DNA of 64,000 bases from a virus (IMGVR_UViG_3300024232_000009:1-64000); one strand, 5' to 3'. Positions 6,550 to 42,029 are shown, numbered from the stretch's first letter. Translations and numbers: made by a program. The notes: generated by a model not told the origin, from the letters alone.

Positions 6550-6572
6550 GTCCCGGGTATCCGCGCCCCGGT
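6550..6572 (-). promoter_or_regulatory. Late-leader hairpin family copy (upstream of spike-base gene)
   Basis: mRNA strand ACCGG-GGCGCGGATAC-CCGGGAC; same architecture as copies at 23813, 31110, 34559, 37671, 38993 and 41979. Confidence 0.6.
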
Positions 6573-6614
6573 TCGCAGCGCGACTATGCCACGCAGCCTA
6601 CGAAATCAGCAAGG

Positions 6615-7946
6615 TTAGGCTTTGACGTCGAGGGCATACCCGAAGCGGTGAAGGTCCGGCAGCGTCTCAATGACCTTTTCGCCAATGTCGTCGCGGTAAA
6701 TTCGATCGGGCCAACTGACTTGGTCGACTACCTCATAGACCCTTTCCCGGGCCTTTGTAACGGTCTTCCCAAGCGCGGTGGCGCAGGCAACGTATGTGCC
6801 CGCGGTTTGATAAACTGGGCCATCGACGACTTTTCCGCCGTCCATGATGGGACCGATTCCCTTCATAGCCTCGACCAGATGCAAGTCGGGGAGTACCTTC
6901 TCGGCTCCGCGAATTGGAATACCTTCGGAGAGCGCAGGTGGTCTTTCGTCATAAGGAAAATCTGGCCGCGCCATTACGACCACCGCGGCTGGATCATAAC
7001 TGACTTTGAGGCTGTCTTTGCCCGTGAGCGCGCCCTTCATCCAGTTGAGCGGGTCGCCTCGATGGGAGGCAGTCTGAAGCCAGAAGCACGGATAACCAAG
7101 CCTCATGGTAAATTCCAAAAACCAAGCCTTTCCCTTGGTATCGATGATGAAATTCAATGCGGTATCCCCTCGGTGACCAAGGGCGCGGAGAGCTGTCTCC
7201 AACGGCAAGAGAAAGTCATCAGCCAGTTTGTCACTGTCGGTGTAAGCCGTAATCGTGCCCATCTCGCCAGTGGCGGGGCCGATATCGCCGGAACACATCG
7301 GTTTATGTTCCCAACAGAGTTGGAATTTTTCAGGCAAGAAGCCCTCGCTCCCCATCCATCCACTGATCCCAAGTTCGGCCACCCGATCGACCTTTTCTTG
7401 GAGCATCAGTTTGCCCTTGAATTTCACCCCGGCCTTTTTCTTCCGGCGGATCCACCCGACGAGGTCCGCCGCATCTTTGCTCATGAATGTTGCCGACTTG
7501 TCTTCTTCCGATCCGCACGGTTTGAATACCCATGCACGATCGGTCTTCAGAGCAAACGCCTCGACTTCATCGAGACTGTTGAACACCTGATAAGGCGGAA
7601 GGTTAGCGTCGATGGATTCCATCAATTCCATGCCAGCCGACCGTTCGATCTCCAGTTTCGCCGAAGCTGGTGTCGGCGCGAAGATCGACTGTTCGAAACC
7701 AAAATCCCGAAACCGATCCAGTTCCGTGAGATATCGATTGTTCGCAGTCAGGACGATGAGCCCATCCTTGGCCCAGTTCATGTGTTGACGCCAATCGTCA
7801 ACGACGACAAACAATGGGGAAAATCCCGTCGCATATTTCGTCGGTTTTGATTGATACCGGAACAACTTCACGTCATGCCCGGCCAGACCCGCACGCATAG
7901 CCAGGTCGAGCCCGCATCGATCCGAGTCAATAATCAGACAGCGCAT
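6615..7946 (-). CDS. PurD (GAR synthetase)-like ATP-grasp ligase, divergent
   Basis: WEHKPMCSGDIGPATGEMGT corresponds to PurD QDHKR...DTGPNTGGMGA, EFTMRLGYP to EFNARFGDP, and the C-terminal YRDDIG is present. The N-terminal GSGGREH loop is replaced by DSDRCGLDL. Confidence 0.85.
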   Translation of the reverse strand: MRCLIIDSDRCGLDLAMRAGLAGHDVKLFRYQSKPTKYATGFSPLFVVVDDWRQHMNWAKDGLIVLTANNRYLTELDRFRDFGFEQSIFAPTPASAKLEIERSAGMELMESIDANLPPYQVFNSLDEVEAFALKTDRAWVFKPCGSEEDKSATFMSKDAADLVGWIRRKKKAGVKFKGKLMLQEKVDRVAELGISGWMGSEGFLPEKFQLCWEHKPMCSGDIGPATGEMGTITAYTDSDKLADDFLLPLETALRALGHRGDTALNFIIDTKGKAWFLEFTMRLGYPCFWLQTASHRGDPLNWMKGALTGKDSLKVSYDPAAVVVMARPDFPYDERPPALSEGIPIRGAEKVLPDLHLVEAMKGIGPIMDGGKVVDGPVYQTAGTYVACATALGKTVTKARERVYEVVDQVSWPDRIYRDDIGEKVIETLPDLHRFGYALDVKA

Positions 7947-7976
7947 GACATCTGGCCTTCATTCCTTCCGGGGGAG

Positions 7977-8053
7977 TGATATAAAAGCAGAACGCGGCAG
8001 GCCGTTGCCCGACCTGACCGCGTCCCTGACCACCTATCCGTTGGAGCGGAGCG
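7977..8053 (+). promoter_or_regulatory. Extended -10 promoter and structured leader of the HNH gene
   Basis: TGaTATAAA at 7977-7985, then hairpin ACGCGG-CAGG...CCTG-A-CCGCGT, CCCTGACCAC, and a second small stem containing the GGAG ribosome site just before the ATG at 8054. Confidence 0.5.
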
Positions 8054-8524
8054 ATGGCTGCTAAAATTGTGACGCATCGAGTGCCGTTGATCCAGAGGTT
8101 CTGGAGCAAGGTCGAAGTATCTGATGACTGTTGGCTTTGGACATCCGACAGAAAAGACACCGGGTACGGACAATTCCACTATCTCGGAAAAACCAGTCGA
8201 GCACACCGGGTCGCCTGGATTTTGTCTTACGGGGATATTCCCCCAGGACTGAACGTCTTGCACACCTGCGACAATCCGCCATGCGTCAGACCCGACCATC
8301 TGTTTCTTGGCACCACCAAAGACAACATCGAAGACAAGGTTACCAAAGGTCGCGCCTGGGGCGGCAGACGTCTCGCGTGGGAGGATGTCTGCATCATCCG
8401 CGCATCCGGTAGTTCTGCCGTGGATGTGGCTGAAGAATTCTCCGTCAGTAGATCGCTTGTTTCCATGATCCGGACAGGCCGCATTTGGCCGAGACCACAT
8501 CATGACTGGATACCTTCCCAATAA
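8054..8524 (+). CDS. Free-standing HNH homing endonuclease inserted antisense in the late operon
   Basis: RFWSKV...CWLW...GYG...AHRVAW...VLHTCDNPPCVRPDHLFLGTTKDNIED is a classic phage HNH; C-terminal HTH. Confidence 0.92.
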   Translation: MAAKIVTHRVPLIQRFWSKVEVSDDCWLWTSDRKDTGYGQFHYLGKTSRAHRVAWILSYGDIPPGLNVLHTCDNPPCVRPDHLFLGTTKDNIEDKVTKGRAWGGRRLAWEDVCIIRASGSSAVDVAEEFSVSRSLVSMIRTGRIWPRPHHDWIPSQ

Positions 8525-8531
8525 TTCTCAC

Positions 8532-8903
8532 TCACCGGACTTCCCCGTAATCGAAGCGCCCAAGCAGGATAGCGAACATATGTTCGAGCAACATTGCCCC
8601 ACGGTGCTGTCGTTGGTATGGGGCTGAAGGGGAGTCACCGGGCTCTCCGTCGCCGGTGAAGGCCGCGTCGAACGTATCCACGGCCCCCTGCGTTATTCCG
8701 GCCTTCAAGCAGAGTTTCGCCTCCGCCAACTCGTGAAATGCGACGAGGAACACCTCGTCCTGATCCATGACGTCGGCGCCGACAACCTTGATATGCAGAT
8801 CGCCGTTTGACGGGTCAAAATACCAATCGCCGCACTCAGGGAATTTATAAGCGTCCAGGCGCATCTTGTCCGCTGGAACCGCCTCGATGATGATCCGGCT
8901 CAT
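8532..8903 (-). CDS. Small putative metalloprotein with HELAE motif
   Basis: CGDWY...FHELAEAKLC...VDTFD...EPGDSPSAPYQRQH; His/Glu/Asp residues arranged as a possible metal site. Confidence 0.75.
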   Translation of the reverse strand: MSRIIIEAVPADKMRLDAYKFPECGDWYFDPSNGDLHIKVVGADVMDQDEVFLVAFHELAEAKLCLKAGITQGAVDTFDAAFTGDGEPGDSPSAPYQRQHRGAMLLEHMFAILLGRFDYGEVR

Positions 8904-9253
8904 GTTGTTGGCCCCAGGTCTGATCCCCTGGTCGCCTTCATCAGTTTTTCCATGTCGGGCGTAGCCTTCTTTATCGCTACCTCGATATTGCCGAGCGTGA
9001 CACCAGCAATGAACGCCATCCGACCATCCCTGATCCCAGTTTCTTGCGTGGTCAGCTTGCCGGGGAAATTCCTTCGCTCAAAATCATCGAGGAGAGCGAT
9101 GATGGCCGTCTGAACATAATCGGCGTCCGGCAACGGCCCTTTGAAAGCCACCTCACCAGCAACATTGCCTGTTGCCAGATTGCGAATCCCTATTCGCTGC
9201 GTTCCTTGGTCTGGCTCTGAAACCTCGAAAACGTAACCCGTTGGTGTTGTCAT
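8900..9253 (-). CDS. Hypothetical protein (117 aa; start reassigned to MTTPTGY)
   Basis: GGAGG ribosome site upstream of the ATG at 9253; ATGA overlap with the downstream gene. Confidence 0.7.
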   Translation of the reverse strand: MTTPTGYVFEVSEPDQGTQRIGIRNLATGNVAGEVAFKGPLPDADYVQTAIIALLDDFERRNFPGKLTTQETGIRDGRMAFIAGVTLGNIEVAIKKATPDMEKLMKATRGSDLGPTT

Positions 9254-9383
9254 GTCCCTGGATAACCTCCCTAAGATCCTGCTGCAAAGCGTGGCGATCG
9301 GCATTTGGGCGACTTGGCGCGCGCGGCGCGCGGCGCGACCGCCGGCGATGAGTGCCGCAGAACGGTTCGGTTGGTGGTTGGGC

Positions 9384-12041
9384 TCACTGCATGCCCGGCT
9401 GCTGGGGCAGAGTTGGCGCCAGTGCCGCGCCTGCTACTGGCGCGAGGGCCTGCGCGCCGCCGCGCGCTACGTTGGCCAGCGCGTTTTGCGTGCGCGGCAT
9501 GGGATTGGCCGATAGCTTGTTGAGCGCCCAGTTCAATCCCTTGGATCCAGCAGCGGTGTAGGGTGCGGCAGCGACAGCCGCGGCCCCAAGCGCCGCTGGA
9601 TTGAGCCACGCCAGACCACCGCCACCCAGACCCATCAGGCCGAGAAACGCGGTGCGCTCCGCTGTGCCGCTGTCCCTGACCACCTGGGGCAGCACCTGGC
9701 TCGCGGCACCGGACAGGTCTTGGAGCAACGCCGCCCCCTCGGAAAAGGCCCGCTTGTCCTTGCTGGTGTCGCGTCGCCGTACGGCCATGCTCAACCGGTT
9801 CGGCGAGAACACACCATCCGCCCGGCCGCCCGCACCCGAGGCCGCGTCCTGGACGATCTTGAACTTGGCATAGCCGGCGTCGATCCGATCCTTGGCCGCC
9901 TGTAGCAGTGGATTGTTGCGCGCCATCATCTTGTCGAGGGCGGTATCGGCCTCCCGCAGCAATTTCGCCAGATCGCGCTCGTACGGGCTTTTGTCGCGGC
10001 CCTTCGTCCGAACCAAATCGTCCAGCATGGTGCCGATCTTCTGCGTGTCTGTCCCCGTGATCCGGCCCGCCCCGGCCCTGAAGGGTTCCAAAATCTCGCT
10101 CTTGATGATGTGCATCAGTTCATCGCGAAGCCCCTGCGGCAGGTTCATCGACTGCGCTTTCAGGCCGATCGCGTTCAGGTCGTTCATGAAGTCGCGGTCC
10201 AGCGCACCACGCATCCTGGGGATGACCATGTCATACGCATCACTGAAGGACTTTCGCGCTGCTTCAATGGCGTCATGCCCGGCATCCACGCCGGGAGGTA
10301 GTTTGGCGCCGATGTCGTCGAGCGACCGATTGATCGCCGCGCGATTGAAGGTCTCGATGCTCTTGCGCTGCGCTTCCCGGACCTGATTTCCCATGAGCGG
10401 ATGCGAGGAAAGCGCGTCCTCCATCCGCTTCAGTTTGCCGCCCGCCATCTGTCCCGGCGTGAGGGTGACACCCTCGCCCATCAAGGTTTTCACCGCTGCC
10501 TCAAAGTTCGGCTTGACGACCTTGGCGAGCGCGTTTCCGACCGCGCCCAACGCCGCTCCCGCACCGGTGCCGATGGCGACTTCCGCTGCCTTGTCCCGCC
10601 AGTACCGATCGTCCTTCTGGCCGGGCTGAGTGCCGCTTGGCGTCATCGCCGCGCCAATGGCTCCAGCCGCCGCTCCGGAGCGCAGCGCGTTCGCCGCCTT
10701 CACCGCTTTGCCGGCGATGCCCAATGGAGCGACCAGGCCGCCCAGGAACTCGCCAGCGCCGGTGGCGAAGGGGTGTGCCGCTCTGTTCGCGGCGTTTTCT
10801 TTCTCAAGGCGCGCTACGCCCGTTCTGGCGTCCTGAGTGAGGGTTTCACCGCCAGGAATTCCCGCCGCCTGCATCCCCTTGCCGACAAGCTCCTCCGCAC
10901 CCAGAACGGTGTCGCCAAATCCCTTGCCAATCGCGCCGATCGTCGACATGACCATGTTGTCCGGCTGCGGTGCCGCTCCCTGCAAATCCGCCAGAAACGG
11001 ATTCGCTGGTGCGGCCGCTTTCGGTTGCGCCTGCTGCAAATCCGCCATGAATGGGTTTGCTTCGGCCGCCTGCGCACTCGGAATGATCGCGTTGCCGATC
11101 TTCCCGAGCAGAGAGATCGGTTCCTTGGGTGCGGGCTCCTGGGGTTCCTGACGCGGTCCACGCGGCAATTGTCCCCGCTCCACGAAATCGTTCGGCAGGA
11201 GCTTGCCCGACATACCCTGGATTTCGGTCGGCGTTCCCTCGCCCTTCTGGCGGATCGCCACCGGGATGGCGTCCACCCCTTCTTGCTGGGCAAGCAACGC
11301 CCGGTGCCGGCCGTCCTGGGCAGTCACCGTACCGGTGTTGCCCTCGACGTTCATGTCCAGCGTGGGGATCGCCTCGATGGGCTCGCCGCGGTTGAACGAC
11401 CGCATGAGCGACCGACCCGAGGGGCTGTCGAACGGCTTATGTTCCAGGTCCGGCGAGAGGTCCAGGTAATCGGCTGGCTGCATGTAGCGGATGTCGGTGC
11501 CCGGCCGGCCGTCATGCTCCTTCATGGCATAGTCGGAGAAGCGGAACCGGTCATTGCCGAGGACCGGTTCACCGCTGGCGTTGTTCTGCCACAGCACCGA
11601 GGCCGGACGTTCGAAGATGCGTTTGAAGGCGTCCTCGTTGCGGCCTCGGTCATCGACGGTCTGTTGCAACTTCAGGAGCCCGGGGTAATCGCGCTCTTTC
11701 TCCATGCGCGAAAACTGGATCTGGATTTCCGGGTCGGTCCAGTCCGTACCGTGTTTGCTGGCATAGGATTTCAGTTCGTCCAGCCGTTTGTTGTGGTGCT
11801 GGTACATGCCGCCCGACGTGGCCCGGCCCGATTTGTCGAAATCACCGGGGACGGCGGATTTGCCGCCGCTCTCCCGCATGATGTTGTCGACCTCGCCCTT
11901 GACCGCGCCCTGCGTGATGTCGGGATTGTATTTCCGGACCAGGCGTTCAGCGTCGTCTCGGTTCAACCGCACCGCGCGCACGGTGACCGGGCCGGTCGGC
12001 CGTTCGGTCATCAGTCGATCGGGATCATAGTCCGCCATCAA
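9384..12041 (-). CDS. DNA ejection (internal virion) protein with N-terminal phage tail-lysozyme and ParB/Srx-like domains
   Basis: IMRESGG...SGGMYQH...RLDELKSYA...WTDPEIQIQF...FERPA (tail lysozyme), QDGRHRA (ParB/Srx), NPFxADL repeats, then an Ala/Gly-rich helical ejection-protein body. Confidence 0.8.
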   Translation of the reverse strand: MMADYDPDRLMTERPTGPVTVRAVRLNRDDAERLVRKYNPDITQGAVKGEVDNIMRESGGKSAVPGDFDKSGRATSGGMYQHHNKRLDELKSYASKHGTDWTDPEIQIQFSRMEKERDYPGLLKLQQTVDDRGRNEDAFKRIFERPASVLWQNNASGEPVLGNDRFRFSDYAMKEHDGRPGTDIRYMQPADYLDLSPDLEHKPFDSPSGRSLMRSFNRGEPIEAIPTLDMNVEGNTGTVTAQDGRHRALLAQQEGVDAIPVAIRQKGEGTPTEIQGMSGKLLPNDFVERGQLPRGPRQEPQEPAPKEPISLLGKIGNAIIPSAQAAEANPFMADLQQAQPKAAAPANPFLADLQGAAPQPDNMVMSTIGAIGKGFGDTVLGAEELVGKGMQAAGIPGGETLTQDARTGVARLEKENAANRAAHPFATGAGEFLGGLVAPLGIAGKAVKAANALRSGAAAGAIGAAMTPSGTQPGQKDDRYWRDKAAEVAIGTGAGAALGAVGNALAKVVKPNFEAAVKTLMGEGVTLTPGQMAGGKLKRMEDALSSHPLMGNQVREAQRKSIETFNRAAINRSLDDIGAKLPPGVDAGHDAIEAARKSFSDAYDMVIPRMRGALDRDFMNDLNAIGLKAQSMNLPQGLRDELMHIIKSEILEPFRAGAGRITGTDTQKIGTMLDDLVRTKGRDKSPYERDLAKLLREADTALDKMMARNNPLLQAAKDRIDAGYAKFKIVQDAASGAGGRADGVFSPNRLSMAVRRRDTSKDKRAFSEGAALLQDLSGAASQVLPQVVRDSGTAERTAFLGLMGLGGGGLAWLNPAALGAAAVAAAPYTAAGSKGLNWALNKLSANPMPRTQNALANVARGGAQALAPVAGAALAPTLPQQPGMQ

Positions 12042-15000
12042 TCGCCCTCCACGGAGATGATCGGACGGCGTTTCGTGATCGCCTCGATCGTGGTAGCCCC
12101 GCCTTCCCCAGTTGGAATGAAGTACCTCGTATCGTAAGTACCAGGGATTCGCTCGCGGAACACCCCGGCCGCCTCCAGTTCGCCCATGTGGCTATAGAGG
12201 TCTGGTCCGGTCAGTTCGAGACGCCACTCTTGCGCCACGCGGCGGCGCTTGATGATCCAGCCGTTCGCCAGACTGGCGACGCCACCCTCCAGTATCCGCT
12301 CAACAACCTCGGCGGGTTTGATGTTCAGCTTGACGCTCTCGGCCCCCAACCGCGTCAGCGTCTCATTGATGACCTTGTTGTCGACCACGCGCCCGAGCAT
12401 CCGTTCGCCGGCGTCGGTCTGAAGCCGGAAAATCTTTGGCTGGCCGGCCAGGCGGTCCCAAATGGGCAGGATCGCGCCGGTGATGATGTGCAGATCGGCT
12501 TCCTTGAACTCGGGTGTCTTCGCGACCCGTTCATCCCACAGGGTTTTCGCCTCTTTGAGATTGGTGATCCGATTCAGGTTTCCGGTGGCGCGCATTGAGT
12601 CATCCAGTTCGTCTTTGGGCACGAACTGCCAGTCGATCGGCGTGGTGACGCGATAATGCTCGGTCACCAAGCCGTTCGGTTCAACTTTGGTGAAGGTCGT
12701 GGGGGTGACCGCCGAAATGTAGCTGCTTCGCTTGTTCTGGATGAAAAACTCCGGTGCGTTCCAACCCGCGCGCTGCGCCTGACCGGACATCAGATCGGTA
12801 AACGACGTCGGATAGTTGCGGTTGCTGGTCATCAGGTGGACGTGCCGCGTCTCCGCGCCGGAATTTGGATCGGTGTAGACCACCTGATCCGACACCTTGG
12901 TGATCTTGTCCGCCTTGTATGTCTCAGTCCCGGCGTCGAGTGTTCCAGCCGCCGCGGCGCGGTCCACGATGTCACGGAAGCGCGTGGCGAATTCATTGAA
13001 CACCCGGTTCTGGTCGTTGACCTTCAGGCTCAGAACGCGGTTCAGGAATTGCGTCATCGGCGGGAGGTCGTCTCGCAGCGCACCATCAGGCGTCGAGATG
13101 ATCAGTCCCATCTGTTCGGCCAGGTCTTCCTCGCTGAAGCCCTCGACCTTCCCCATGTGAATGTCGACGAACAGTTGCCTAAGACCAGCTTTGGCCTCGT
13201 CGCTTTCCAGGTTGTCCTGTAGGCCAAACATGCCCTGATCACCGGTGCGTCGCTCCCCCTTGGTCAGCGCGCCCAACTGGCCCAATCGACGCGCAATCGA
13301 CGAAATGAACCGTTTCTGCCCCTCCAGATCGGTCGTGACGAGGTGGAAGATCGGTGCGGTCCACTGGTTCGTGCGGTGCGTGCGGCCGAAACCCTGCACT
13401 GCGGTATCCGCCCGCCACCCAGCCTGTACGAGGTAGTGCGAGCGTCGAGCACCGGAATTGCCTCCGATGGCTAGCCGGCCAGTATCGTCTACCCGTTCCG
13501 CCGTTTTGTCGTCGTGGTAGCTACGCCCGGTTCCACCCGCTTGCGAGAAGATCAGGATTTTCTTTTTGCCGCTCTGGAATGAGTTGGCCTCGGCCACGTT
13601 CGCGTCCGTGCCTCGCTTTTCCAGCACCTTCTTCATGCGGCCGGTTTCGTCGGGCTTGTTCACCACCCGCTGCTTGCGACCAGTGACCTCCGCAACCGCC
13701 TCGGGCCCGTAGTGGTTGACCAGAATTTCCAGTGGTCCATCCGGCACCCGGAGGGAGCCAAGGTCCAGCAGCAGCTTTTCCTTGGCCGCGACCGCCTCTG
13801 GATTGGCGACCTTGTTGCCTTCGGAATCAATAACCAGACGCACACGCTCATTGCCGTCCGGATCTATATAGGTCTCGTATTGCCAGATCGGGAAGGCCTT
13901 ATCGACCAACTGCAAGAGTTGATCGCGCGGCGACATATCGAGTTCTTCCAGGTCTTCGTCGCCGCTGGCTTTGCTCTTGTCGAGCGCGCGTTCTTGGCCG
14001 GCCTCGTTGGTGTTGACCAACTGAAGCACCGCCTGACGCCCTTCCGCGAGGTCTTTATCAATCCCCTCGATCACACTCGGCATCTGAAGCGACGTGATCA
14101 ACTGATTGAAGAACCGCTGATGACCACCCCAGAATGCGGACATGATGGCTGACTTCGGCCCACCCTTACCGTCGGCGCCGGTTTCCGCCAGCGCCTCCAT
14201 CATGTTGCGCAGCACGAGTTGCCACGCATCGGCGATCTTGTCGTACATCTCCCGTTGCGGCGGCGTCAGGTCGTGCTGCACCCGGTCATACTCGACGCCG
14301 TCGTAAGACAGAGACCGGGCCGTGTAGTAGCCCAGCGCCTTCATGTCCCGGGCGACGAGTTCCATCGCGGCGACGCCACCGGAGGCTACGCGCGAGAGGA
14401 AGTCGCTCCGATTGGCGAAGGCCGTACCAGGCCCCCATAATCCAAGGCGATCGGCGTAGGCCAGATTGTTGACCTCGGTGGCTCCCGTGGCCGAAACATA
14501 GACCACGCGGGCATTCGGTAGCGCGTTCTGCAGTTCGAGCCCGGCGAGCGCCTTGGCCGCAGCCTCTTTCGTGCCGCGTTTGCCCTTTTCGCTGGTGGCG
14601 TTTGCCATGTTATGAGCTTCGTCGAAGGCGATCACACCGTCGAAGTCCTTGCCGACCCAATCGACGATCTGCTGCACGCGAGTTTTCGGTTCTGCCCCCT
14701 GTGGTTTTTCGATGCCAACTTGCTGCGGCAGCAAAAGCCATTGGCCCATATTGTGGGTCTTGCCGTTCTTCTCCTTGACCTTCCACTCTATCTCCGTTCG
14801 GGTGTCCTTTGATGGTTTGTTGCCGACGATTGTCAATTCAGCGGTCTGGCCAGTTAATGGATGCTGTGCCGTGACTTTGGCACCGTCAAAGAACCCGTGC
14901 CTCCCGTGTTTTTCCCATTCCTCCGGGGTAGCGCCACCAAACTTCTCTCCCGACTTCACCGTGTCATACGTGGTGAACAGAATCCCCTCGTGCTTGATCT

Positions 15001-22944: not shown

Positions 22945-23775
22945 TCAGCCTGTTGCGAAACCAGGCGCTATCGACTGACCGGTTGGATCCAAGGAAATAT
23001 ATGACGGCGTTCCACTGCCGTCGTTCGCACCAGAGGAAACCAATCCCTTTAACCAGGACTGAAACTGCGGATTTTGGAACGCTGATCCGATGGCTGTCCC
23101 GGCTTGGCCAAAGCCTCCTGTAATCGCGTTGGCGCCTCCTACCTGCCCGGCCGCCAGGGCATTCCCCCCGCCGATCGTGTTCGCTCCGATCTGACTGGCC
23201 ACTCCGGTTCCGATGCCACCCAAATTGGCCGCTGCGTTCTGTCCCGAGCCCGCCAGGTTGGACAGATTCCCCAACAGATTTCCCCATGCGCCACTGAAGT
23301 TGCCGAGGTACTGGTTGAAGTTCTGGTTTGCCAGTCCTTGTCCAGTCTGCTGCAATGCCCGGAGAGCGTTGCCCCCCACATTACCGTGCGCCGAGTTCGT
23401 GACGGCGTTGGTGCCCTGCTGAAGCTGGTACTGGTAACCGGGGGAGCCCTGGAATGTCCTGGGATCGATGTTGCCCGCGCCCGTTCCGCCAGCGCCACCG
23501 TAGCCCAGCATTTGCAGGAGCGGGCTTGTCGCACCCGCACCGCCCGCGCCAATACCCAAGAGCCGCTGGAGTTCGCCGAGCGCGTTGCCGCCGGCTTCGA
23601 CATACGGCTGCATCCGGCCAACCGTTTCGCCATACATCTGGCGTTCAAGTTCGGTTGCCTTATTGGCTGCGTCGGCCTGTGTTTTCGCGGCATCTTTCGA
23701 CGCGGACGCGCCGATAAGGCCACTACCAATCGATCCTGCGGCGGCTAATCCGGCACCAGCGATGGCCCACGGCAT
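22945..23775 (-). CDS. DNA transfer (pilot) protein, P22 gp7-like
   Basis: MPWAIAGAGLAAAGSIGSGLIGASASKDAAKTQADAA...MQPYVEAG...FQGSPGYQYQLQQG is typical of gp7-type proteins. Start reassigned from 23802. Confidence 0.8.
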   Translation of the reverse strand: MPWAIAGAGLAAAGSIGSGLIGASASKDAAKTQADAANKATELERQMYGETVGRMQPYVEAGGNALGELQRLLGIGAGGAGATSPLLQMLGYGGAGGTGAGNIDPRTFQGSPGYQYQLQQGTNAVTNSAHGNVGGNALRALQQTGQGLANQNFNQYLGNFSGAWGNLLGNLSNLAGSGQNAAANLGGIGTGVASQIGANTIGGGNALAAGQVGGANAITGGFGQAGTAIGSAFQNPQFQSWLKGLVSSGANDGSGTPSYISLDPTGQSIAPGFATG

Positions 23776-23812
23776 TCGAGTATCCCCAGCGCGATGCGCC
23801 ACAGAAAGGAGA

Positions 23813-23835
23813 CACCCGGGGAGGCCCGTCCCGGT
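23813..23835 (-). promoter_or_regulatory. Late-leader hairpin family copy (upstream of pilot gene)
   Basis: Plus strand CACCCGGGGAGGCCCGTCCCGGT; 20 of 23 positions identical to the 38993 copy. Confidence 0.65.
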
Positions 23836-23876
23836 TCGGCGATGTCAGGTTAGCATTTGGTCGGAAGTGGAAGCAA

Positions 23877-31083: not shown

Positions 31084-31109
31084 GGGCGGTATCCGGGCGA
31101 TGATGGAGC

Positions 31110-31132
31110 CGCCCGGCGAGGCGCGTGCCGGT
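31110..31132 (-). promoter_or_regulatory. Late-leader hairpin family copy (upstream of gp4)
   Basis: Plus strand CGCCCGGCGAGGCGCGTGCCGGT; compensatory C..G versus G..C pair relative to the 38993 copy. Confidence 0.65.
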
Positions 31133-31189
31133 CCGCAGGTGATAGATTAGCGAGTTGTCAGGCCGATTGGTAGCGGGTCAGCACTCAGT

Positions 31190-34558: not shown

Positions 34559-34602
34559 CACCCGGCTATCAGCCGCCGGTAGGCACCCGGCTGGATGCCG
34601 GT
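34559..34602 (-). promoter_or_regulatory. Tandem pair of late-leader hairpins (upstream of GT cluster)
   Basis: Plus strand CACCCGGCTATCAGCCGCCGGT (34559-34580) and CACCCGGCTGGATGCCGGT (34584-34602). Confidence 0.6.
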
Positions 34603-34641
34603 GGGGGAAGTAACAACCCCCACCGTTACCCTGTCAAATGG

Positions 34642-36400: not shown

Positions 36401-37584
36401 CAGTTCGTCAACCGGCAAGCAAGCTCGTTGTAGAACTGGGCGACGCCAAACAGGATATCGATACGGCACGGGGTCACGTCATTCCAGACGTCATAGGCCC
36501 GGACGATACGCATCGAGATATTGCGGAACATTTGCCGGGCCGCGAAGTCGACGCCTCCTGGCAGTTCCATCGGCACACACACGAGGCCCATGGCATCGCG
36601 GGTGAAGCCCATGTTCTGGAAGTAGGAGGTGCTGGCGCTGCCCAGCGGTGTGATAACTGCACCGTTGGCCGGGCCCGCCGACACGTTCTGGTATGCGCCA
36701 GAGGTCGTGATCGCCGGGGAGATTTGCAGCGTTGCGTTGCCGCCTGCGTCAGATGCCGCAACCGCAGTCACGGTGAACTGTTTCAGCGTCCCGGTGCTGA
36801 GATAGTTCTGGGGGTTGACCGCGTACACGCCGGCCATGGTGAAGGTATCACCGACGTTCAGCAGGGCCGCGATGCTGGCCGTCCAGCCATTGGTGATGAT
36901 GCTCGAACCGCTCTGGTTCGCGCCATTGACCACCGGTGTGCCGGCGTAAGCGCCAACGGTCTGCGCCTGGACGTTCTGATCCAGGTAGATTTCGAAATTG
37001 GCGATCGCCGCGAGGAAGCCCTTCAGCGCGGGTTCGGCGACAGAGCGGGTGAACAGGTTGCTCACACCGTTGGCGATGGCCCAGTAAGCGGCCGGGTTCA
37101 GGATCAGCACGCGGCCATCCTGCGGCGCCGCGTTCTCATCGAGGCGCTGGCCAACCGCGGCGATCGACGCGAAGGAGTTCGGCGGCGTGCCGGGGGTGCC
37201 GACCTCGTTGGAAAACTGGTTCCACAGCGCCAGCACCGAGGTATCGATGGTGTTCGCCAGGGTTTCCGCGGCGGGCTTGCAGTACCGCTCCGAGTATTCC
37301 TCGATCGTCAGGGTCAGTTCCTGCGAGGAAAACTGGAAGTCAACGTGCGCCTGCGTCGAAATGCTGATCGACGTCGAGGGCTCGGTGATGTCCTGGATCT
37401 GAAGTGCCGGACCAAGCGTGACGGTGAAGCGGTTCGGCTTGCGGACAGTCAGCGTGGTGCCGATTTTGACGAACTGGTTCTCGAACTGACGATTGACCTT
37501 GCCCGCGGCGACCAGGTTGTTCGTCAAGATGACCAGCGTTTCCTTGGTGATCAAGGACGGCGTGAGCAGGGCGTTCGTGGCCAA
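36400..37584 (-). CDS. Major capsid protein, P22 gp5 (coat) family
   Basis: MATNALLT...KIGTTLTVRKP...VDFQFSSQELTL...KPAAETLANTID...RIDILFG. Confidence 0.93.
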   Translation of the reverse strand: MATNALLTPSLITKETLVILTNNLVAAGKVNRQFENQFVKIGTTLTVRKPNRFTVTLGPALQIQDITEPSTSISISTQAHVDFQFSSQELTLTIEEYSERYCKPAAETLANTIDTSVLALWNQFSNEVGTPGTPPNSFASIAAVGQRLDENAAPQDGRVLILNPAAYWAIANGVSNLFTRSVAEPALKGFLAAIANFEIYLDQNVQAQTVGAYAGTPVVNGANQSGSSIITNGWTASIAALLNVGDTFTMAGVYAVNPQNYLSTGTLKQFTVTAVAASDAGGNATLQISPAITTSGAYQNVSAGPANGAVITPLGSASTSYFQNMGFTRDAMGLVCVPMELPGGVDFAARQMFRNISMRIVRAYDVWNDVTPCRIDILFGVAQFYNELACRLTN

Positions 37585-37670
37585 GGGATTTCTCCTGTGC
37601 GCCCCGCATGGGGCGTGTTCAGTTGTTCATGGGAATTGTCCTCGAACCCGAGATGCGCTCTCGGTCGCGA

Positions 37671-37727
37671 TACCCGGTCATGCCGGTGGGTAGGCGGTCG
37701 TCACCCGGCCGAAGCCGGTGGGTAGGC
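37671..37727 (-). promoter_or_regulatory. Tandem pair of late-leader hairpins between scaffold and coat
   Basis: 14-bp direct repeat GCCGGTGGGTAGGC at 37682 and 37714, each part of an mRNA hairpin CACCGG-loop-CCGGGT. Confidence 0.7.
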
Positions 37728-38957
37728 TTAGTGCAGTCCACCTTCCGGGAAGAACGGGCGCCGGGTGGCGCGCAGTGCTTCGTTCCGTTTGGCGGCGTAG
37801 GCTTCCATATCAGGCTCTTCGTCTGATCGGTCGCCAGCATTCCGTCCGCTGTCAATTGGCTCGATCGGTTCTTCGCGCGGCGCACGCCGGCGAGGGGGAT
37901 TGGCCAACCTCTCGGCGATACGGCCGATTTCGATGAAGTGCGACGCGGCATCCGGCATGTTCGCGATGCGCGCCGCCTCTTCGGTGTTCTGTCCCAGGAA
38001 GTACGCGACTTCGGGGCCGTTCTCGACCTTCATGATGGCGAACGCCATCGGTTTGGAGATCACCGGTCCACCCTCGGCGGGGTCGGCCTCGGCCACCTCC
38101 GCGTAATCGGCGTATTTCTCCATCGTGGCGGCGCGGCGTTCGTTCCAGGTGTTGTTGAGCTTGACGAGTTCCGCCTCCTGGGCGTCCTTTTCCTCTTGCT
38201 CTTTGGTGGCGCGCTCTTCGGCTTCCGCCGCGGCCTTCTTCTCGGCCGCTTCCTTTTCCGCCGCCCGGAGACCATCGCGGCGTGCCCAATCTGTCAGAGC
38301 ATCATCGTAGGCGTCCGGGTCGTCGAAGGCGTCGCGGGTCGGGCGCGGGTCAGTATCGGCGACCTCATCGACCTTGGTTTCGGTCGGGACACGCGCCTTC
38401 AGTTCCGCGAGTTCCACCCGGGCAGCTTCGGCCGCGGCTTCCGCATCGCGAGCCTTCTTGCCGGCGCTGGTAGCGGCCTCCCGCTCCTTCTGGACGATCT
38501 GATCCCGGGCAAGATTGACCGCCGTTTCCCATGCTTCGCTGCCGACCTTCGCCTTGGCTGCTTTCTCCAGCGCCTGGCGATACTCCTTGGCCTTTTTCTT
38601 CTCGGTCAGGATTTGACGGCGGGCCCAGTCGGGAAGGCGATCGGATACCGCCGCTTCATCCTCGACCTCCTTGCCGTCGACGCTGAGTTCCTCGGCATCG
38701 TCATCGCCCTTGGCATCATCGGCTTTCGCCATCTCGCCAGTTTTTTCAGGGTCCGTACCATCACCTTTGCGCGCGGCATCGGCGAGTGCGAGGTCTTCCG
38801 GGCTGATTTCCTTGGAGACGCCGCCTGTCTGGTCCGTCGCGTCGTTCGAGGCTGACTCGGGGGGCTTCGGCAGTTCCGCCAACGGCTGATCCGACACCGC
38901 TGCCAAGGGTATGGCGCTACGAACGATGATGTCGGGTTGACGCGCTGCGAGTGCCAT
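37728..38957 (-). CDS. Scaffolding protein
   Basis: Acidic, Ala/Glu/Lys-rich helical protein with RPTRDAFDD...YDDALTDW, MEKYADY..V and GPEVAYFLGQN motifs, directly before coat. Confidence 0.85.
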   Translation of the reverse strand: MALAARQPDIIVRSAIPLAAVSDQPLAELPKPPESASNDATDQTGGVSKEISPEDLALADAARKGDGTDPEKTGEMAKADDAKGDDDAEELSVDGKEVEDEAAVSDRLPDWARRQILTEKKKAKEYRQALEKAAKAKVGSEAWETAVNLARDQIVQKEREAATSAGKKARDAEAAAEAARVELAELKARVPTETKVDEVADTDPRPTRDAFDDPDAYDDALTDWARRDGLRAAEKEAAEKKAAAEAEERATKEQEEKDAQEAELVKLNNTWNERRAATMEKYADYAEVAEADPAEGGPVISKPMAFAIMKVENGPEVAYFLGQNTEEAARIANMPDAASHFIEIGRIAERLANPPRRRAPREEPIEPIDSGRNAGDRSDEEPDMEAYAAKRNEALRATRRPFFPEGGLH

Positions 38958-38992
38958 GGGCGGCGATAATCCTATAGCGATTTGGATTCCGT

Positions 38993-39015
38993 CACCCGGG
39001 GAGGCGCTTCCCGGT
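38993..39015 (-). promoter_or_regulatory. Late-leader hairpin family copy (upstream of scaffold)
   Basis: Plus strand CACCCGGGGAGGCGCTTCCCGGT. A candidate CTTGAC -35 box lies on the minus strand at about 39054-39059. Confidence 0.65.
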
Positions 39016-39193
39016 CAGCTAAGTCGGCGAGTTAGACCAGTGTTTTACCGCGCGTCAAGTCTCACGATTGGAAGTTCGGTTGCCAAACGACTGAGTCGGT
39101 GGCATTTCTCCTCCGTGAGGCGTCGGGCATAGTGCTGTATCTCTCGACGGCATGCAGTGCGATGGTACGGCCCGTCTGGCGTCTCACTGCTGG

Positions 39194-39267
39194 GCGATCA
39201 TAACTCAATGGTAGAGTGCCAGTCTGCCAGTCTGGCTACGAAGGTTCGATTCCTTCTGGTCGCTCCA
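39194..39267 (+). tRNA. tRNA-Gly(GCC)
   Basis: Acceptor GCGATCA/TGGTCGC, D arm ACTC-AATGGTA-GAGT, anticodon loop CTGCCAG, T arm GAAGG-TTCGATT-CCTTC, U73 and encoded CCA. The anticodon stem has a U-U mismatch. Confidence 0.85.
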
Positions 39268-39331
39268 GGCTCCCACATCCGATCGACATCATCGTCCAGC
39301 CGGTCAGGCCCGCAAACTGGATAGAACGTGG

Positions 39332-39598
39332 TTAGGCGCCTGGATCGACCGTCTTTTCGCGCTGCGCCTTCATCTCGGCAACCAATTTCTCAATGCCGCT
39401 GGCGATGCGCTCCTGCGTACCGGCAAGTGAACTGATCGCGGCGATGAAATCGGGCGGGACCATCAGCATCATGCCCACCGGAGCGGGCACGCCACCGGTG
39501 GACTTCTTCTTCCCCTTGGGCTTTGGTTTGGTCGCTGGCTTCGCTGGCGGTTCGTCGGCGTCATGGTGCGCGATTGGATCCCACTCGCCGCCGCTCAT
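39332..39598 (-). CDS. Hypothetical protein (88 aa)
   Basis: ATGA overlap with the portal stop. Confidence 0.7.
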   Translation of the reverse strand: MSGGEWDPIAHHDADEPPAKPATKPKPKGKKKSTGGVPAPVGMMLMVPPDFIAAISSLAGTQERIASGIEKLVAEMKAQREKTVDPGA

Positions 39599-41970
39599 GC
39601 TGCCCTCGCTGGCTTGCCATCAGGCCCAAGGGTCCACTTCTGCCCGTTGCGGAAAGTGGTCACTCGATCCGGCCGCAAATGCTGAAGCGCTTCGGGCGGT
39701 GGCGTATCATCCGCGGGCGAAGCGTCTTGACCCGCACCGCCTGCACCATCCGCGCCTTCCGCCTCTTCGTCGTTGGCCGCGTCCGGTTCCTCCAGCGCGT
39801 GCATCAGCGACGTGACGCCTTCACCAAGCTGGCTGATCTGCGCGGCGATGTGCGTGTTGAAGTTGGCGCTCGCCTTCTCCTGGATCGCGGCCATCTTGGT
39901 CTCGACGTCGGACACGATCTTGATCAGCTTGGCCTCGAAGTCCTTCTGTATCTTCTCGGCCTCGAGCGCGCGATCTTCCTTCTTGTCCTGGAGCGCGGCC
40001 ATCGCCGCCTGGAGCTGCTGCGTCAGTTCCTTCAGCGCCTGCTCTTGCTGCGTCAGCACCGCCTGCACCTGCGGCGGTACGTCCTTCATGTCCGGCGTCA
40101 TCAGGCCTGGCGGGATCGTCTTGGCGAGGCGCGTCGCGATTTCCTCGGCACCTGGCCAATCCTGATTTTTGGCGAAAAGATCGGCGACGAGTGCCGCGGT
40201 CTGCGGGAGCGCCTTCATGAACGCCATCATGTTTTCGGCCGCCTCGATGCGCTTCGTCGCGTAGCTCGGGCCGATCGTCACCGTCACGCCGTATTTGCCG
40301 AATTTCGGGTTGAACAGCTTGCGGGTTTTGCCGTCGGCCTTCTTCTCTTCGCCCATGGCCTTGCCGAGCGTCGGATCGACCTTGACCTGTTCCTCCTTGT
40401 CGTCCTCGCGGAGGATCGTCACCACGCGCGGGTCGTCGTAAATCTTCGGGATCACCTCCACGAAAATCTCGCCGGTCCGCTTCAGAGCGCGAGCCAGGTT
40501 GTCGACGTAGTGGAAGGAGCCAAGGTCACCGGACCGGCGAAGCTCGCGGATCGCCTTCCCTGACTCATCGATCATCCGCTCGTTCATCGTGGCGTCGAAC
40601 CGGATACCGGTTGTCGCCATCATGTCCTGCCCGGCGTTCACGCCGGCCTGGACCACGCCGGCCGGAATCCCCGCCATCGGCTGCCGCTGCGGCGGCGGCG
40701 CCTGCGTCCCGCCAACCGACGTGCCTTTGTAAGACAGATAGGGCATGTTTTTGACGTTGGCGTTCTTCCACTCGTCCTCGTGCCCCTCGATCTGGCCTTC
40801 CTCGACCACCCAGGGCGATTTGGGCTGGAGCGCGATCAGTTCCGTCTCCGCGGTGCGCCAATAATTGAACATGCGCTGCGGATCTTTGGCGTGACGGATG
40901 ACGCCCGAGTATTTGACCTTCCCCTCGATGTCGATCTCGTCACCGACAACCTTGACGATCGGGATGGTGGAGCCCTGCCACTCGCGTTTCATCAGCACGT
41001 CGTTGGCCGTGATCTTGTACCACATGACCTTGGGAACCCGGCTCTCGCGTTCGTCCACGATTTGCACGCGCTTGCGCCCGATCCGAGCCAAGGTCATCTC
41101 GTCCAGTTCGTCGTACCAGCCAACATGGCCATTATCGAGTTCGACCAGCTTGCGCGTCTTGTAGTCGACCTCGAAATACTCGGCGATCCGAACCTCGTCC
41201 TTGGCGATCCAGTTGGTGAACTTCTCCCCTATTCCGCCTTCCGTGTAGTTGAGCGGGTCAGCGTCGGGGTATTTTTCCTCGTACTCGTCACGCGGCATCA
41301 TCTCGGTGATGAAGCCCCACTTGGCATCTGCGGCGGTCGGGTCTTGGTGCGCCGGATCCAGATAGACGGTGAACGGATTGCGGATGCGCCGGACCACCAG
41401 CACCAGATTGAAGCTGTCCGGCGCCTCCCGCTCGGTCAGGATACGCCAGTAACCCCAGCCCATGGTCACCGCGTCATCGAACGCCGTGTCGTAGGCGATA
41501 TCGGCCGCGCAGTCTCGTTCAATGAACCGGATCAGCCCACGGTACATCTTCGCGACCTCGGGGTCGCCGCGATCGCCAACCGGGCTGATGTTGATCGATG
41601 GACGGTTCTGGCGCTGATCGTTGACGATCTGATGAATAAACGTCGGCAGCTTGTTGATCGTCAGGCATGGCCGCTTATCCAGGTTGCGCTGGGCCATGAT
41701 CTCTTTCGGCCACTGGTCGCCAGCCTTGAACAGGCGGTCATCGAGGGCTGATTTTCGGTTGTCGCTCTCCGCTGTGATCGCCTTTTCCATGCGCTTACGC
41801 GCGCGGCTCAACAGCTTTTCCTTTTCGGCTTCCTGCCCCTTTGGGAAGCCCAGTGCGGTGCCCTTGTCGTCGCCAAGCATCGACGCTGGACTGACCTTAT
41901 TCATCGCACTGTCCACGGATGGCATGCGAATTCGCCCGTTATCCTTGGGCTTGTCTACTGCCTGCGCCAA
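39595..41970 (-). CDS. Portal protein, P22-like
   Basis: GDQWP...RPCLTINKL...YDTAFDDAVTMGWGYWRI...GIIR-type SGVIRHAKDPQRMFNYW...ESGKAI...YGVTVTIGPSYATKR. TTG start; exact start uncertain. Confidence 0.95.
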   Translation of the reverse strand: MAQAVDKPKDNGRIRMPSVDSAMNKVSPASMLGDDKGTALGFPKGQEAEKEKLLSRARKRMEKAITAESDNRKSALDDRLFKAGDQWPKEIMAQRNLDKRPCLTINKLPTFIHQIVNDQRQNRPSINISPVGDRGDPEVAKMYRGLIRFIERDCAADIAYDTAFDDAVTMGWGYWRILTEREAPDSFNLVLVVRRIRNPFTVYLDPAHQDPTAADAKWGFITEMMPRDEYEEKYPDADPLNYTEGGIGEKFTNWIAKDEVRIAEYFEVDYKTRKLVELDNGHVGWYDELDEMTLARIGRKRVQIVDERESRVPKVMWYKITANDVLMKREWQGSTIPIVKVVGDEIDIEGKVKYSGVIRHAKDPQRMFNYWRTAETELIALQPKSPWVVEEGQIEGHEDEWKNANVKNMPYLSYKGTSVGGTQAPPPQRQPMAGIPAGVVQAGVNAGQDMMATTGIRFDATMNERMIDESGKAIRELRRSGDLGSFHYVDNLARALKRTGEIFVEVIPKIYDDPRVVTILREDDKEEQVKVDPTLGKAMGEEKKADGKTRKLFNPKFGKYGVTVTIGPSYATKRIEAAENMMAFMKALPQTAALVADLFAKNQDWPGAEEIATRLAKTIPPGLMTPDMKDVPPQVQAVLTQQEQALKELTQQLQAAMAALQDKKEDRALEAEKIQKDFEAKLIKIVSDVETKMAAIQEKASANFNTHIAAQISQLGEGVTSLMHALEEPDAANDEEAEGADGAGGAGQDASPADDTPPPEALQHLRPDRVTTFRNGQKWTLGPDGKPARAA

Positions 41971-41978
41971 TGTTCGAA

Positions 41979-42029
41979 CACCCGCTCAATCGCGGTTCAT
42001 GTGCCCGTGTAGACCGCGCCACGGTTCGC
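41979..42029 (-). promoter_or_regulatory. Tandem pair of late-leader hairpins upstream of portal
   Basis: mRNA GCGAACCGTGGCGCGGTCTACACGGGCACAT (near-identical to the 6550 copy, with a compensatory T-A pair) followed by ACCGC-GATTGA-GCGGGTG. Confidence 0.6.

Follow-up and report, generated by a model that had tools for sequence, protein, structure and literature searches.

Hairpins in the leaders of virion genes

The window analysed here is a 64,000-nt stretch of the 88-kb genome of a soil phage. It carries 11 copies of a small hairpin at seven loci, all on the mRNA (minus) strand and all in late intergenic DNA, which comes to 1.2 kb (1,211 nt) altogether; the genes behind them are virion genes (portal, scaffold, coat, gp4-like, ejection and tail). 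The common pattern is A-CC(G)NN–loop–N'N'(C)GG-G, with stems of 4-6 bp, loops of 3-12 nt and a folding energy of -6 to -11 kcal/mol per single copy. We distinguished a long-loop class (8–11-nt loops, many of 9-10) from a short-loop class; in tandem copies the distance between the two half-sites ranges from 3 to 12 nt.

All coordinates of hairpins, boxes and pairing segments given here refer to the minus strand. The portal leader holds one copy at 42004..42025 (ACCGTG, 10-nt loop, CACGGG; stem 42024-42005; 25.4 bits) and another at 41981..41996 (4-bp stem, 6-nt loop; stem 41995-41982), and the scaffold leader a single one at 38995..39015 (ACCGGG, AAGCGCCTC, CCCGGG; stem 39014-38996; 31.5 bits). 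Three copies precede the coat gene, at 37704..37719 (stem 37718-37705), 37673..37687 (stem 37686-37674) and 37647..37665 (6-bp stem, 37664-37648), and the first of these, which has a C(UUCG)G tetraloop, begins ~9 nt past the scaffold stop codon. Short-loop copies stand in rows of two to four in the scaffold-coat spacer, which is devoid of a promoter, and several of the hairpin loops are UNCG tetraloops. Two more copies, at 34586..34602 (stem 34601-34587) and 34561..34580 (stem 34579-34562; 26.8 bits), lie ahead of an 87-aa gene that heads the glycosyltransferase (GT) cluster, and single copies precede a 249-aa gp4-like gene (31112..31132; stem 31131-31113; 31.6 bits), the ejection-protein gene (23815..23835; stem 23834-23816; 31.5 bits) and an 87-aa gene upstream of the tail-spike genes (6552..6572; stem 6571-6553; 27.2 bits). 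Ten of these copies at the same seven loci had been listed in a sequence-only reading, and all were present on the minus strand; the eleventh, at 37664-37648, was added here. The loop A-NNN-GCCTC common to three copies and the stretch GCGAACCGxGGCGCGG..TACxCGGG.ACAT common to the 6571 and 42024 copies are as that reading had described them, and its statement that the copies are intergenic, in one orientation and without a U-tract holds for all 11.

The loose 4-bp pattern is common, with ~14 matches per strand in a shuffled 64-kb window. The minus strand of the 88-kb genome contains 32 matches, 11 of them inside the late intergenic gaps, which total 1,211 nt (binomial P = 3e-13); it is their location, not their count, that excludes a chance origin. 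When all combinations of closing dinucleotide and flank were compared, A/CC/G was the top class in the late gaps. A covariance model seeded with the 11 window copies (seed scores 20-32 bits) returned nothing above 16.2 bits beyond the seeds on either strand of the 88-kb genome. The observation that the family marks these leaders holds. Searches of Rfam 15 yielded no family for the hairpins at the gathering score, which only a tRNA-Gly passed, and no match overlapping any hairpin at E <= 5, in agreement with the earlier proposal of an element outside the described families. We conclude that this RNA motif is genuine and has no counterpart in Rfam. No U-tract or T-run follows any copy and the terminator scan lists none of them, which rules out intrinsic (Rho-independent) terminators. 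A true intrinsic terminator is present at 42201-42168.

Conservation and covariation in related phages

The motif was found at the same leaders in ~20 related metagenomic phages, with 21 of 22 covariance-model matches on the coat strand. The outer pairs do not vary, and covariation is seen at the two inner ones (GC/AU/UA/CG exchanges, with 100% pairing in 18 distinct sequences), as the sequence-only reading had anticipated from the window copies. A pairing test anchored on ACCG..CGGG only, and not selecting for inner pairing, gave both inner positions paired in 36% of cases (73/202) on the coat strand outside mapped genes; the corresponding shares were 7-8% within genes and 3% for the opposite strand. 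The ACC...GGG signature is kept in relatives of 41-69% G+C with differing stems (CCCGC, CCAGCA, CCAAG). Orthologues with compensatory changes were found for the scaffold-leader hairpin in nine relatives, and further orthologues were found for the third coat-leader hairpin (ACCGAG..CTCGGG; L003, L004, L015 and L023), the gp4-like-gene hairpin (L001, L004, L005, L006, L023, G003 and G004) and the ejection-gene hairpin (G004). Gene content near the conserved leaders is highly mosaic, and in the more distant relatives L038-L042 the corresponding scaffold-coat site is occupied by a canonical GC hairpin with T-run. Compensatory stem changes, variable loops, non-complementary flanks (5' A, 3' G), strict strand bias and the lack of an Rfam family together support the view, already put forward from the sequence, that the hairpin acts single-stranded and not as a symmetric DNA operator.

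Promoter-like boxes and probable late transcription units

A host-type (sigma-70-like) box lies directly upstream of the hairpin at six of the seven loci. The portal boxes (42037..42066; TGGACA, 18 nt, TGt-TACGGT) end 11 nt from the hairpin's A, and the same box type (TGcTACGGT / TGcTACCGT) recurs in G004 and G001. At the scaffold leader (39029..39058; TTGACG, 16-17 nt, TCTAAC(TC)), TTGACG-N17-TA is conserved across relatives, the TTGACG block and the -10 TA being kept in 9-10 leaders despite only 36-50% protein identity. Boxes also precede the ejection gene (23847..23876; TTGCTT, 18 nt, TGc-TAACCT), a -10-like TAATCT (31144..31149) lies 11 nt upstream of the A of the gp4-like-gene hairpin, and putative boxes are found at the 87-aa gene upstream of the tail-spike genes (6583..6612; TTGCTG, 18 nt, TGg-CATAGT) and at the GT cluster (34607..34637; TTGACA, 18-19 nt, TGt-TACTTC). 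At this 34.6-kb GT locus the first hairpin is a mere 4 nt away from the -10 box, and a transcript from these boxes may start inside the hairpin's 5' arm.

The five long-loop copies of the window sit 10-15 nt downstream of a -10 box. Among 69 non-redundant long-loop matches, 19 have TAnnnT 10-14 nt upstream (1.9% background, P = 4e-17), and 12 of these 19 carry the extended -10 TG (P = 7e-11), which gives the box TGnTAnnnT. Under strict sigma-70 criteria the late region yielded no promoter, and no phage RNA polymerase or sigma factor was detected among ~50 larger or late-proximal proteins, a set that covers a minority of the small ORFs. Because the hairpin lies 10-14 nt past the -10 box, it probably marks the 5' end of separate late transcription units. 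Judged from the -10 boxes, the long-loop hairpins would begin ~4-7 nt into late transcripts, and the late region would comprise some six units that all start with this hairpin module. Hence the earlier placement in late-gene leaders stands, while most loci appear to head units of their own and not to belong to one long operon.

Predicted pairing of the hairpin shoulder with the pre-start region

The 3' shoulder of the hairpin (CGGG+NN) is complementary to the 10 nt preceding the start codon. Duplex energies averaged -8.05 kcal/mol for cognate and -6.57 kcal/mol for non-cognate pairs (permutation p = 0.0004, n = 22, a sample that counts orthologous leaders of common ancestry). In four window leaders this helix is part of the minimum free energy (MFE) fold, and enforcing the hairpin, hereafter H1, costs 3-9 kcal/mol of stability. 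For scaffold leaders, RNAalifold recovered the helix with covariation; in the window it spans 38958..38994, where GGGTG pairs with CGCCC just ahead of the ATG in both the consensus and the MFE fold, and the Shine-Dalgarno GGATT pairs with AATCC. Ahead of the gp4-like gene, CCGCCC (31084..31093) pairs with the shoulder GGGCGG (-13.0 kcal/mol), and ahead of the 87-aa gene upstream of the tail-spike genes, GTCCCG (6524..6533) pairs with CGGGAC (-11.0 kcal/mol), the same fold pairing the Shine-Dalgarno GAGAA with ATCTC. For the ejection gene, GGATACTCGA (23776..23785) pairs with the shoulder CGGGTGTCT (-11.6 kcal/mol), a pairing that favours the ATG at 23775 as the true start codon; the G004 orthologue has an 8-bp helix of -14.2 kcal/mol. 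The overlap between H1 and the long-range helix is just 2-3 bp. With H1 enforced, most of the Shine-Dalgarno-sequestering helix persists in the fold, so a switch between them may be only a small modulation.

A four-cysteine protein as a candidate partner

A 99-aa protein encoded at 44792..45091 (minus strand), with a CxxxC..CxxC arrangement and a long helix, is a candidate trans-acting partner. Its gene belongs to an operon that lies just upstream of the late region and ends at a terminator before the first late promoter. The protein was found in every genome with the multi-copy motif and was absent from 9 of 10 complete relatives without model matches, the tenth (G008) having both the protein and two hairpins; at least three genomes (L053/G016, L030/G019 and L068/G017) have descriptor-level hairpins and no detectable four-cysteine protein. 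Co-occurrence of protein and motif is confounded by phylogeny. No Pfam, PHROG or PDB match and no recognisable RNA-binding fold were found for the protein, which as a hairpin partner is only a lead. The scaffold, RHH and KGGKV proteins suggested from the sequence gained no support as partners; only the four-cysteine protein tracks the hairpin.

Discussion

The hairpin probably helps control the amount of each virion protein. Tentatively, and at somewhat short of an even chance, we regard it as a module of the leaders through which the translation and the stability of late mRNAs are adjusted and which may be locked by a protein. H1 would be built into the 5' leaders of late virion-gene transcripts, and its invariant 3' strand, (C)GG-G with the next 2-4 nt, would have two alternative partners: the 5' arm A-CC(G), which forms H1, and a C-rich segment of 5-8 nt just ahead of the start codon, which would form a long-range helix enclosing the Shine-Dalgarno sequence. 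H1 would then serve as an anti-sequestering arm, leaving the ribosome site more open when formed and closed when the long-range helix prevails, and its position near the 5' end might slow 5'-end-dependent mRNA decay. A phage or host protein may recognise H1 and so balance all late units together; the invariance of the unpaired A and G and of the C-G, C-G closing pairs, along with loop conservation, suggests this. We infer the start sites, the switching, the protein partner and the effect on protein yield. The tandem scaffold-coat copies are not beside a start codon and are poorly explained by a switch.

Several known systems share features with this module. In phage Mu, Com acts on mom at one site for one gene, where a hairpin adjoins a helix that hides the ribosome-binding site (RBS) and the balance would be shifted by a small zinc-binding phage protein. 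The leaders described here also show, in silico, a hairpin adjoining an RBS-sequestering helix, but there are 11 copies at seven loci and the candidate four-cysteine protein has no detectable similarity to Com. The class III (phi10) 5' stem-loop and the RNase III sites of T7 are likewise phage-wide structured elements at or between highly expressed late genes that shape mRNA stability and yield; T7, however, has its own polymerase and its RNase III sites need a duplex of ~20 bp, and the stems of 4-6 bp found here, against about two helical turns, rule out RNase III processing of that type. The boxB hairpin of lambda nut has a 5-bp stem, lies a short way past a promoter and is recognised in its RNA form by a small phage protein. 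Our hairpins resemble it in their short stems soon after a promoter-like box and differ in having loops of 3-12 nt with varied sequence, no fixed pentaloop and many copies per genome; no boxA-like block was found in the leader alignments and no N-like protein was identified. The phage also encodes small basic proteins that are uncharacterised. Hairpin promoters of the N4 virion-RNA-polymerase type are ruled out by the loops (3-12 nt against 3 nt) and by the late, not early, genes. Such promoters also go with a giant virion RNA polymerase gene, and the domains found in the 2887-aa virion protein are of the strawberry-notch helicase type, with none of a polymerase.

The promoter-early stem-loop (PeSL) cassettes of T4-like phages (Arbiol et al. 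2010, PMC2839356; Comeau et al. 2014, PMC4122927) are similar in being short intergenic cassettes repeated at many loci per phage and conserved in relatives, and in combining a sigma-70-type promoter (putative in our leaders) with a GC-rich stem-loop that lacks a clear U-tract, with a Shine-Dalgarno sequence and with the beginning of the following gene. PeSLs flank early non-essential ORFans in hyperplastic regions, whereas the hairpins here head virion-gene units. The PeSL stem-loop lies between -35 and -10 or over the -10 box and mainly stops upstream transcription (PMC2839356), whereas ours lies wholly downstream of the -10 box (10-14 nt) and thus belongs to the transcript that it heads; only here are the flanks and the closing pairs fixed, and only here do promoter-less rows stand ahead of the coat gene.

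Among other explanations, one that we think rather unlikely is that the hairpins are plain mRNA stabilisers or processing barriers against 5'-end-dependent RNase E and 3' exonucleases, with half-lives setting stoichiometry and with neither a switch nor a dedicated protein. Hairpins of this kind are used by T7 phi10 transcripts, E. coli ompA and the Rhodobacter puf operon. The long-loop copies near the 5' end, the first coat-leader copy ~9 nt past the scaffold stop, the rows of 2-4 copies, the UNCG tetraloops and the GC hairpin with T-run at the scaffold-coat spot of L038-L042 all agree with it. However, a stabiliser needs no fixed unpaired A and G, no fixed C-G, C-G closing pairs across 41-69% G+C and no conserved loops; stems of only 4-6 bp with many loops of 9-10 nt (-6 to -11 kcal/mol) fit it poorly, the probable 5' overhang of 4-6 nt is at or beyond the protective limit in E. 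coli, and the cognate pre-start complementarity is left unexplained. It is improbable that the hairpins are promoter-proximal and intercistronic attenuators, which would halt or pause the host RNA polymerase until a Q-, N- or GafZ-like phage antiterminator appears and so time or balance late expression. A hairpin directly after each late promoter box and a small four-cysteine protein encoded just upstream of the late region would suit this mechanism, and precedents come from gene-transfer agents: in the Caulobacter cluster, GC-rich inverted-repeat rows after the first gene terminate strongly and are bypassed by GafZ (PMC11150451), and in Bartonella the late promoter is followed by a terminator that a Q21-like protein reads through (10.1101/2024.11.20.624540). 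Against it, the U-tract is missing from every copy, the stems are short and the loops long, the hairpin would end near +26 and so very close to the promoter, the leader alignments lack a conserved -10-like pause element (NANNNT) in the interval from the -10 box to the hairpin, and no Q, N or GafZ homologue was found among the proteins scanned.

Action as DNA, either as the operator of a dimeric phage regulator or as a PeSL-type recombination linker moving gene modules, seems very unlikely to us. The near-constant long-loop spacer of 9-10 bp at +5 to +26 of the promoter boxes would accord with an operator, and the mosaic gene content around conserved leaders recalls PeSL cassettes (PMC2839356). 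Half-site positions 4-5, however, vary between copies without ever losing complementarity, a constraint not expected of a dimer that reads both halves, and the asymmetric flanks (A...G, not A...T), the tandem-copy spacing of 3 to 12 nt and the strict strand bias argue for RNA.

A far-reaching but improbable further reading is that the hairpins serve as operators in a late regulon under the control of the orphan 99-aa four-cysteine protein. Bound to H1 of every late leader, this candidate binder would keep the 3' strand from the start-site helix; alternatively, it might modify the polymerase that has just made H1. If this were true, six transcription units would be switched on together, and a Com- or N-like principle would span a whole virion module that moves between otherwise mosaic phage genomes.

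A hairpin family in the late-gene leaders

All ten hairpins that the sequence-only reading had placed at seven late-gene loci were recovered on the minus strand, together with an eleventh copy absent from its list (37664-37648, minus). The aligned copies have a 5′ A-C-C-G and a 3′ C-G-G-G in common, with stems of 4–6 bp and loops of 4–10 nt. A loose 4-bp pattern gave ~14 chance matches per strand in the shuffled 64-kb window; late intergenic DNA (1,211 nt) holds 11 of the 32 minus-strand pattern matches of the 88-kb genome (P = 3e-13), and A/CC/G is the dominant hairpin class within late intergenic gaps. In a background scan with a covariance model seeded on the 11 window copies, the seeds scored 20–32 bits and the rest of the 88 kb, on either strand, at most 16.2 bits. 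Every sizeable late-gene gap contains a copy except 9305-9383 and 1432-1845, and no copy was found in early-region gaps. Rfam yielded no matching family, neither at its gathering score nor with E ≤ 5, consistent with the earlier description of the element as unnamed.

Several known site types were considered and rejected. A likeness to a sigma-54 promoter in the loop (GG-N10-GC) appeared only in the 31131 copy and was dismissed by inspection, because copies with short loops have no room for such a promoter. An ECF-type -35 (GAACC) at the 5′ arm has no conserved -10 box at the right distance, and a restriction or methylation site (paired CCGG) does not account for the stems CCGTG, CCGAG, CCCGC and CCAGCA, which lack CCGG.

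The virus record, of which the window covers the first 64 kb, is a single sequence of 88,242 bp (G+C ~62%) whose overlapping ends indicate a circular assembly. It encodes P22-type portal, scaffold, coat, head-closure and DNA-ejection proteins, all on the minus strand, and a large terminase subunit split by an intein with a LAGLIDADG domain (50694-53570, minus). DNA similarity to known phages is limited to traces, and coat-gene relatives were found in genomes or MAGs of Beta-, Gamma- and Alphaproteobacteria. A Pfam match to Tad5 (E = 2e-21), an inhibitor of type I Thoeris, was obtained for a 170-aa protein (43336-43848, minus). A sub-threshold Rfam match to suhB/mmgR at 62768-62846 (+; 25.9 bits, gathering score 41) overlaps a weak match to the Rhizobiales sRNA Atu_C7; this stretch may be a small RNA, and the matches give a weak hint of an alphaproteobacterial host.

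Conservation and covariation in related phages

A coat-protein search yielded 80 IMG/VR loci (63–90% identity) and a further 9 in genomes or MAGs. The same signature lies ahead of scaffold, coat, gp4-like and portal genes in ~20 distinct phages, almost always on the coat strand, and four complete or near-complete relatives, taken as whole sequences, show the same layout. Over 645 kb, the window-derived model returned 22 matches at E ≤ 1, with ~1 expected by chance, and 21 of these are on the coat strand. Their three outer pairs are invariant, and the inner pairs vary on both sides while always remaining paired (GC 12, AU 3, UA 2 and CG 1 at one pair; CG 9, GC 8 and UA 1 at the other). Because the alignment of these matches is model-fitted, we added a test in which ACCG...CGGG served as the only anchor. 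On the coat strand outside mapped genes, 36% of anchor pairs have both inner positions paired, compared with 7–8% within genes and 3% for the opposite strand. The A-CC...GG-G frame is kept with stems such as CCCGC, CCAGCA, CCAGA and CCAAG in genomes of 41–69% G+C. The bias of G-U over A-C mismatches, used as an RNA test, gave no signal, the one-mismatch candidates being mostly coding background. The motif is real, conserved and structured.

Copies near putative promoters

Copies with loops of 8–11 nt form the first element of a leader. A TAnnnT hexamer lies 10–14 nt upstream of the long-loop copy in 19 of 69 non-redundant matches (background, 1.9%), a count made without an ORF-length filter, which drops most true leaders; TGn precedes the hexamer in 12 of the 19. 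The scaffold leader instead carries a TTGACG block, a 16–17-nt spacer and a TA box, kept in ten phages despite scaffold-protein identities of only 36–50%. A purine is usual 7 nt past the -10 box. The late boxes are of a weaker or extended -10 type. Because a strict sigma-70 scan found no site in 23–42.8 kb and picked up none of them, we can only infer promoter activity: judged by sequence, the boxes would be host-type promoters, with the hairpin starting at ~+4 to +7, and the late region would comprise ~six units. The 2887-aa virion protein contains strawberry-notch helicase domains but no domain of an RNA polymerase, and no phage RNA polymerase or sigma factor was found in ~50 further proteins scanned.

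The operon preceding the portal promoter box stops at a canonical intrinsic terminator (42201-42168, minus), in which TTTTCTGTT follows a 13-bp GC stem. The first late unit begins after this terminator, which marks the border between early/middle and late genes. Between the portal and scaffold units, a tRNA-Gly(GCC) gene (39194-39267, +) runs antisense; in related loci this slot holds 11 (L005) or 10 (L006) late-strand tRNA genes, or two antisense ones (L033). The slot is a tRNA insertion hot-spot, which fits a promoter of its own for the scaffold gene.

A predicted competing helix at the ribosome site

In four leaders (scaffold, gp4-like, ejection and spike-base), the minimum free energy fold joins the 3′ strand of the hairpin (the shoulder, CGGG plus 2–4 nt) to the nucleotides immediately ahead of the start codon, in a helix that encloses the Shine-Dalgarno sequence; hairpin-enforced folds are 3–9 kcal/mol less stable. 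The variable bases of the two strands covary (GGGCGG/CCGCCC, CGGGAC/GUCCCG, CGGGUG/CACCCG, GGGUAUC/GAUACCC). Among 22 non-redundant long-loop leaders, cognate duplexes averaged -8.05 kcal/mol vs -6.57 kcal/mol for non-cognate ones (permutation p = 0.0004). RNAalifold on ten scaffold leaders recovered both this helix and an inner Shine-Dalgarno helix, with compensatory changes. Since the competing helix overlaps the hairpin by just 2–3 bp, its effect may be graded rather than all-or-none.

Within the scaffold leader, the helix at 38994-38958 (minus) pairs the Shine-Dalgarno sequence as AATCC/GGATT, and its counterparts in two related loci read TTTCCTG/CAGGAAA (L012) and TCTCC/GGAGA (L007). This leader is more conserved than the scaffold protein itself. 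By analogy, the helix is a candidate operator for P22-like scaffold autoregulation. To our knowledge, the mechanism by which the P22 scaffolding protein autoregulates post-transcriptionally was never explained. The scaffold protein was rejected as an RNA binder here, being acidic and having no basic or known RNA-binding region.

Tandem copies in the scaffold-coat spacer

The scaffold-coat spacer represents a second setting, with no promoter-like box and two to four short-loop copies in a row. The linkers between tandem copies are C/A-rich and G-poor, with a composition resembling Rho-loading or ribosome-standby sequence. Such linkers, often made of heptad repeats (examples are GACCACC, CCTACCG and AAGCCTG), were noted in the coat leaders of seven related loci (L007-L011, L015 and L023) and of the window (37700-37690). 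The last coat-leader copy also shows the competing-helix layout, with GGG, Shine-Dalgarno sequence and CCC followed by a mini-ORF. From the hairpin row to the coat start (37630-37582, minus), the order is a Shine-Dalgarno GAGGA, a 3-codon mini-ORF (ATG AAC AAC TGA, 37630-37619), a GC hairpin (CGCCCC ATGC GGGGCG, 37615-37600), AGGAG (37596-37592) and the TTG start codon (37584), all on the minus strand. The same order, with A/C-rich mini-ORFs of 3–6 codons, was found in at least 11 distinct related coat leaders, and this arrangement may be a ribosome-delivery or re-initiation device.

A candidate protein partner

Non-structural genes are highly mosaic across the hairpin-rich genomes, and only two small non-structural proteins are common to all five that were fully compared. 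A 70-aa protein (43124-43336) was rejected as a partner because the five hairpin-free genomes tested all have it too. A 99-aa four-cysteine protein (44792-45091, minus) combines a conserved CxxxC...CxxC motif with a long helix. It is carried by genomes G000-G005 and G011-G013 and by a new contig (L113) that also has a leader hairpin; these carriers are at the same time the closest relatives by coat identity. It is missing in 9 of 10 complete relatives without model matches; the scaffold leader of the exception, G008, bears two hairpins. Genomes that lack a detectable homologue can have one or two descriptor-level hairpins. The protein has no Pfam or PHROG family, and a word-index search returned only itself. 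Its AF2 model is confident (pLDDT 90.6) and has no PDB match at E ≤ 0.001. With clustering at 50%, a profile search gave 174 representatives, in most of which the gene call omits the N-terminal cysteine motif, and the public gene call for this genome starts the protein at an internal Met. The closeness of its carriers, the hairpins in genomes without it and the absence of a family or fold match are serious caveats, and the protein is only a lead as a putative hairpin partner. Three very basic small proteins (45091-45273, 46687-47010 and 47010-47210, minus; net charge +12 to +15) are encoded in the interval from the terminase to the portal gene. Some of the hairpin-rich relatives have conserved them, and they could be internal head proteins or nucleic-acid binders.

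Possible roles of the leader hairpins

The reading we tentatively prefer is that of a promoter-proximal leader module tuning ribosome access and mRNA stability of the late units, perhaps under protein control. Functionally, the hairpins can be compared with Mu Com/mom, the T7 phi10 5′ stem-loop and lambda boxB. That the hairpins serve as a plain stabiliser is possible, if rather unlikely. A role as attenuators is more doubtful still: as the sequence-only reading had stated, no U-tract was found at the hairpins, nor was a pause element or, among the proteins scanned, an antiterminator homologue. This alternative is nevertheless kept alive by alphaproteobacterial gene-transfer agents, in which terminating GC-rich repeats are bypassed by GafZ (PMC11150451) or a Q21-like protein allows read-through of a terminator placed after a promoter (10.1101/2024.11.20.624540). 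We regard a DNA-level element as very improbable. The preference for RNA structure over a DNA operator held up: the conserved flanks are asymmetric and non-complementary, the strand bias is strong and loop length varies, and these features point to an element acting single-stranded, most simply as RNA.

No described equivalent of the motif was found. Closest to it among described elements is the PeSL cassette of T4-like phages, in which a promoter and a stem-loop form a repeated unit (PMC2839356, PMC4122927). However, PeSLs go with early ORFans, place the stem-loop within or before the -10 box, and have been proposed to terminate upstream transcription and to act as recombination linkers, in all of which they differ from the leader module favoured here.

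New here are a motif missing from Rfam and a putative promoter consensus, TGnTAnnnT, for these soil phages. How tailed phages dependent on host RNA polymerase balance proteins needed in 12 to >400 copies per virion is poorly understood beyond a few model phages. In this clade the starts of the late units carry a compact RNA module that is repeated and well conserved. The module comes with an evident competing helix around the ribosome site and with a protein as candidate partner; although the phage has not been cultured, all of these are accessible to reporter and in vitro assays.
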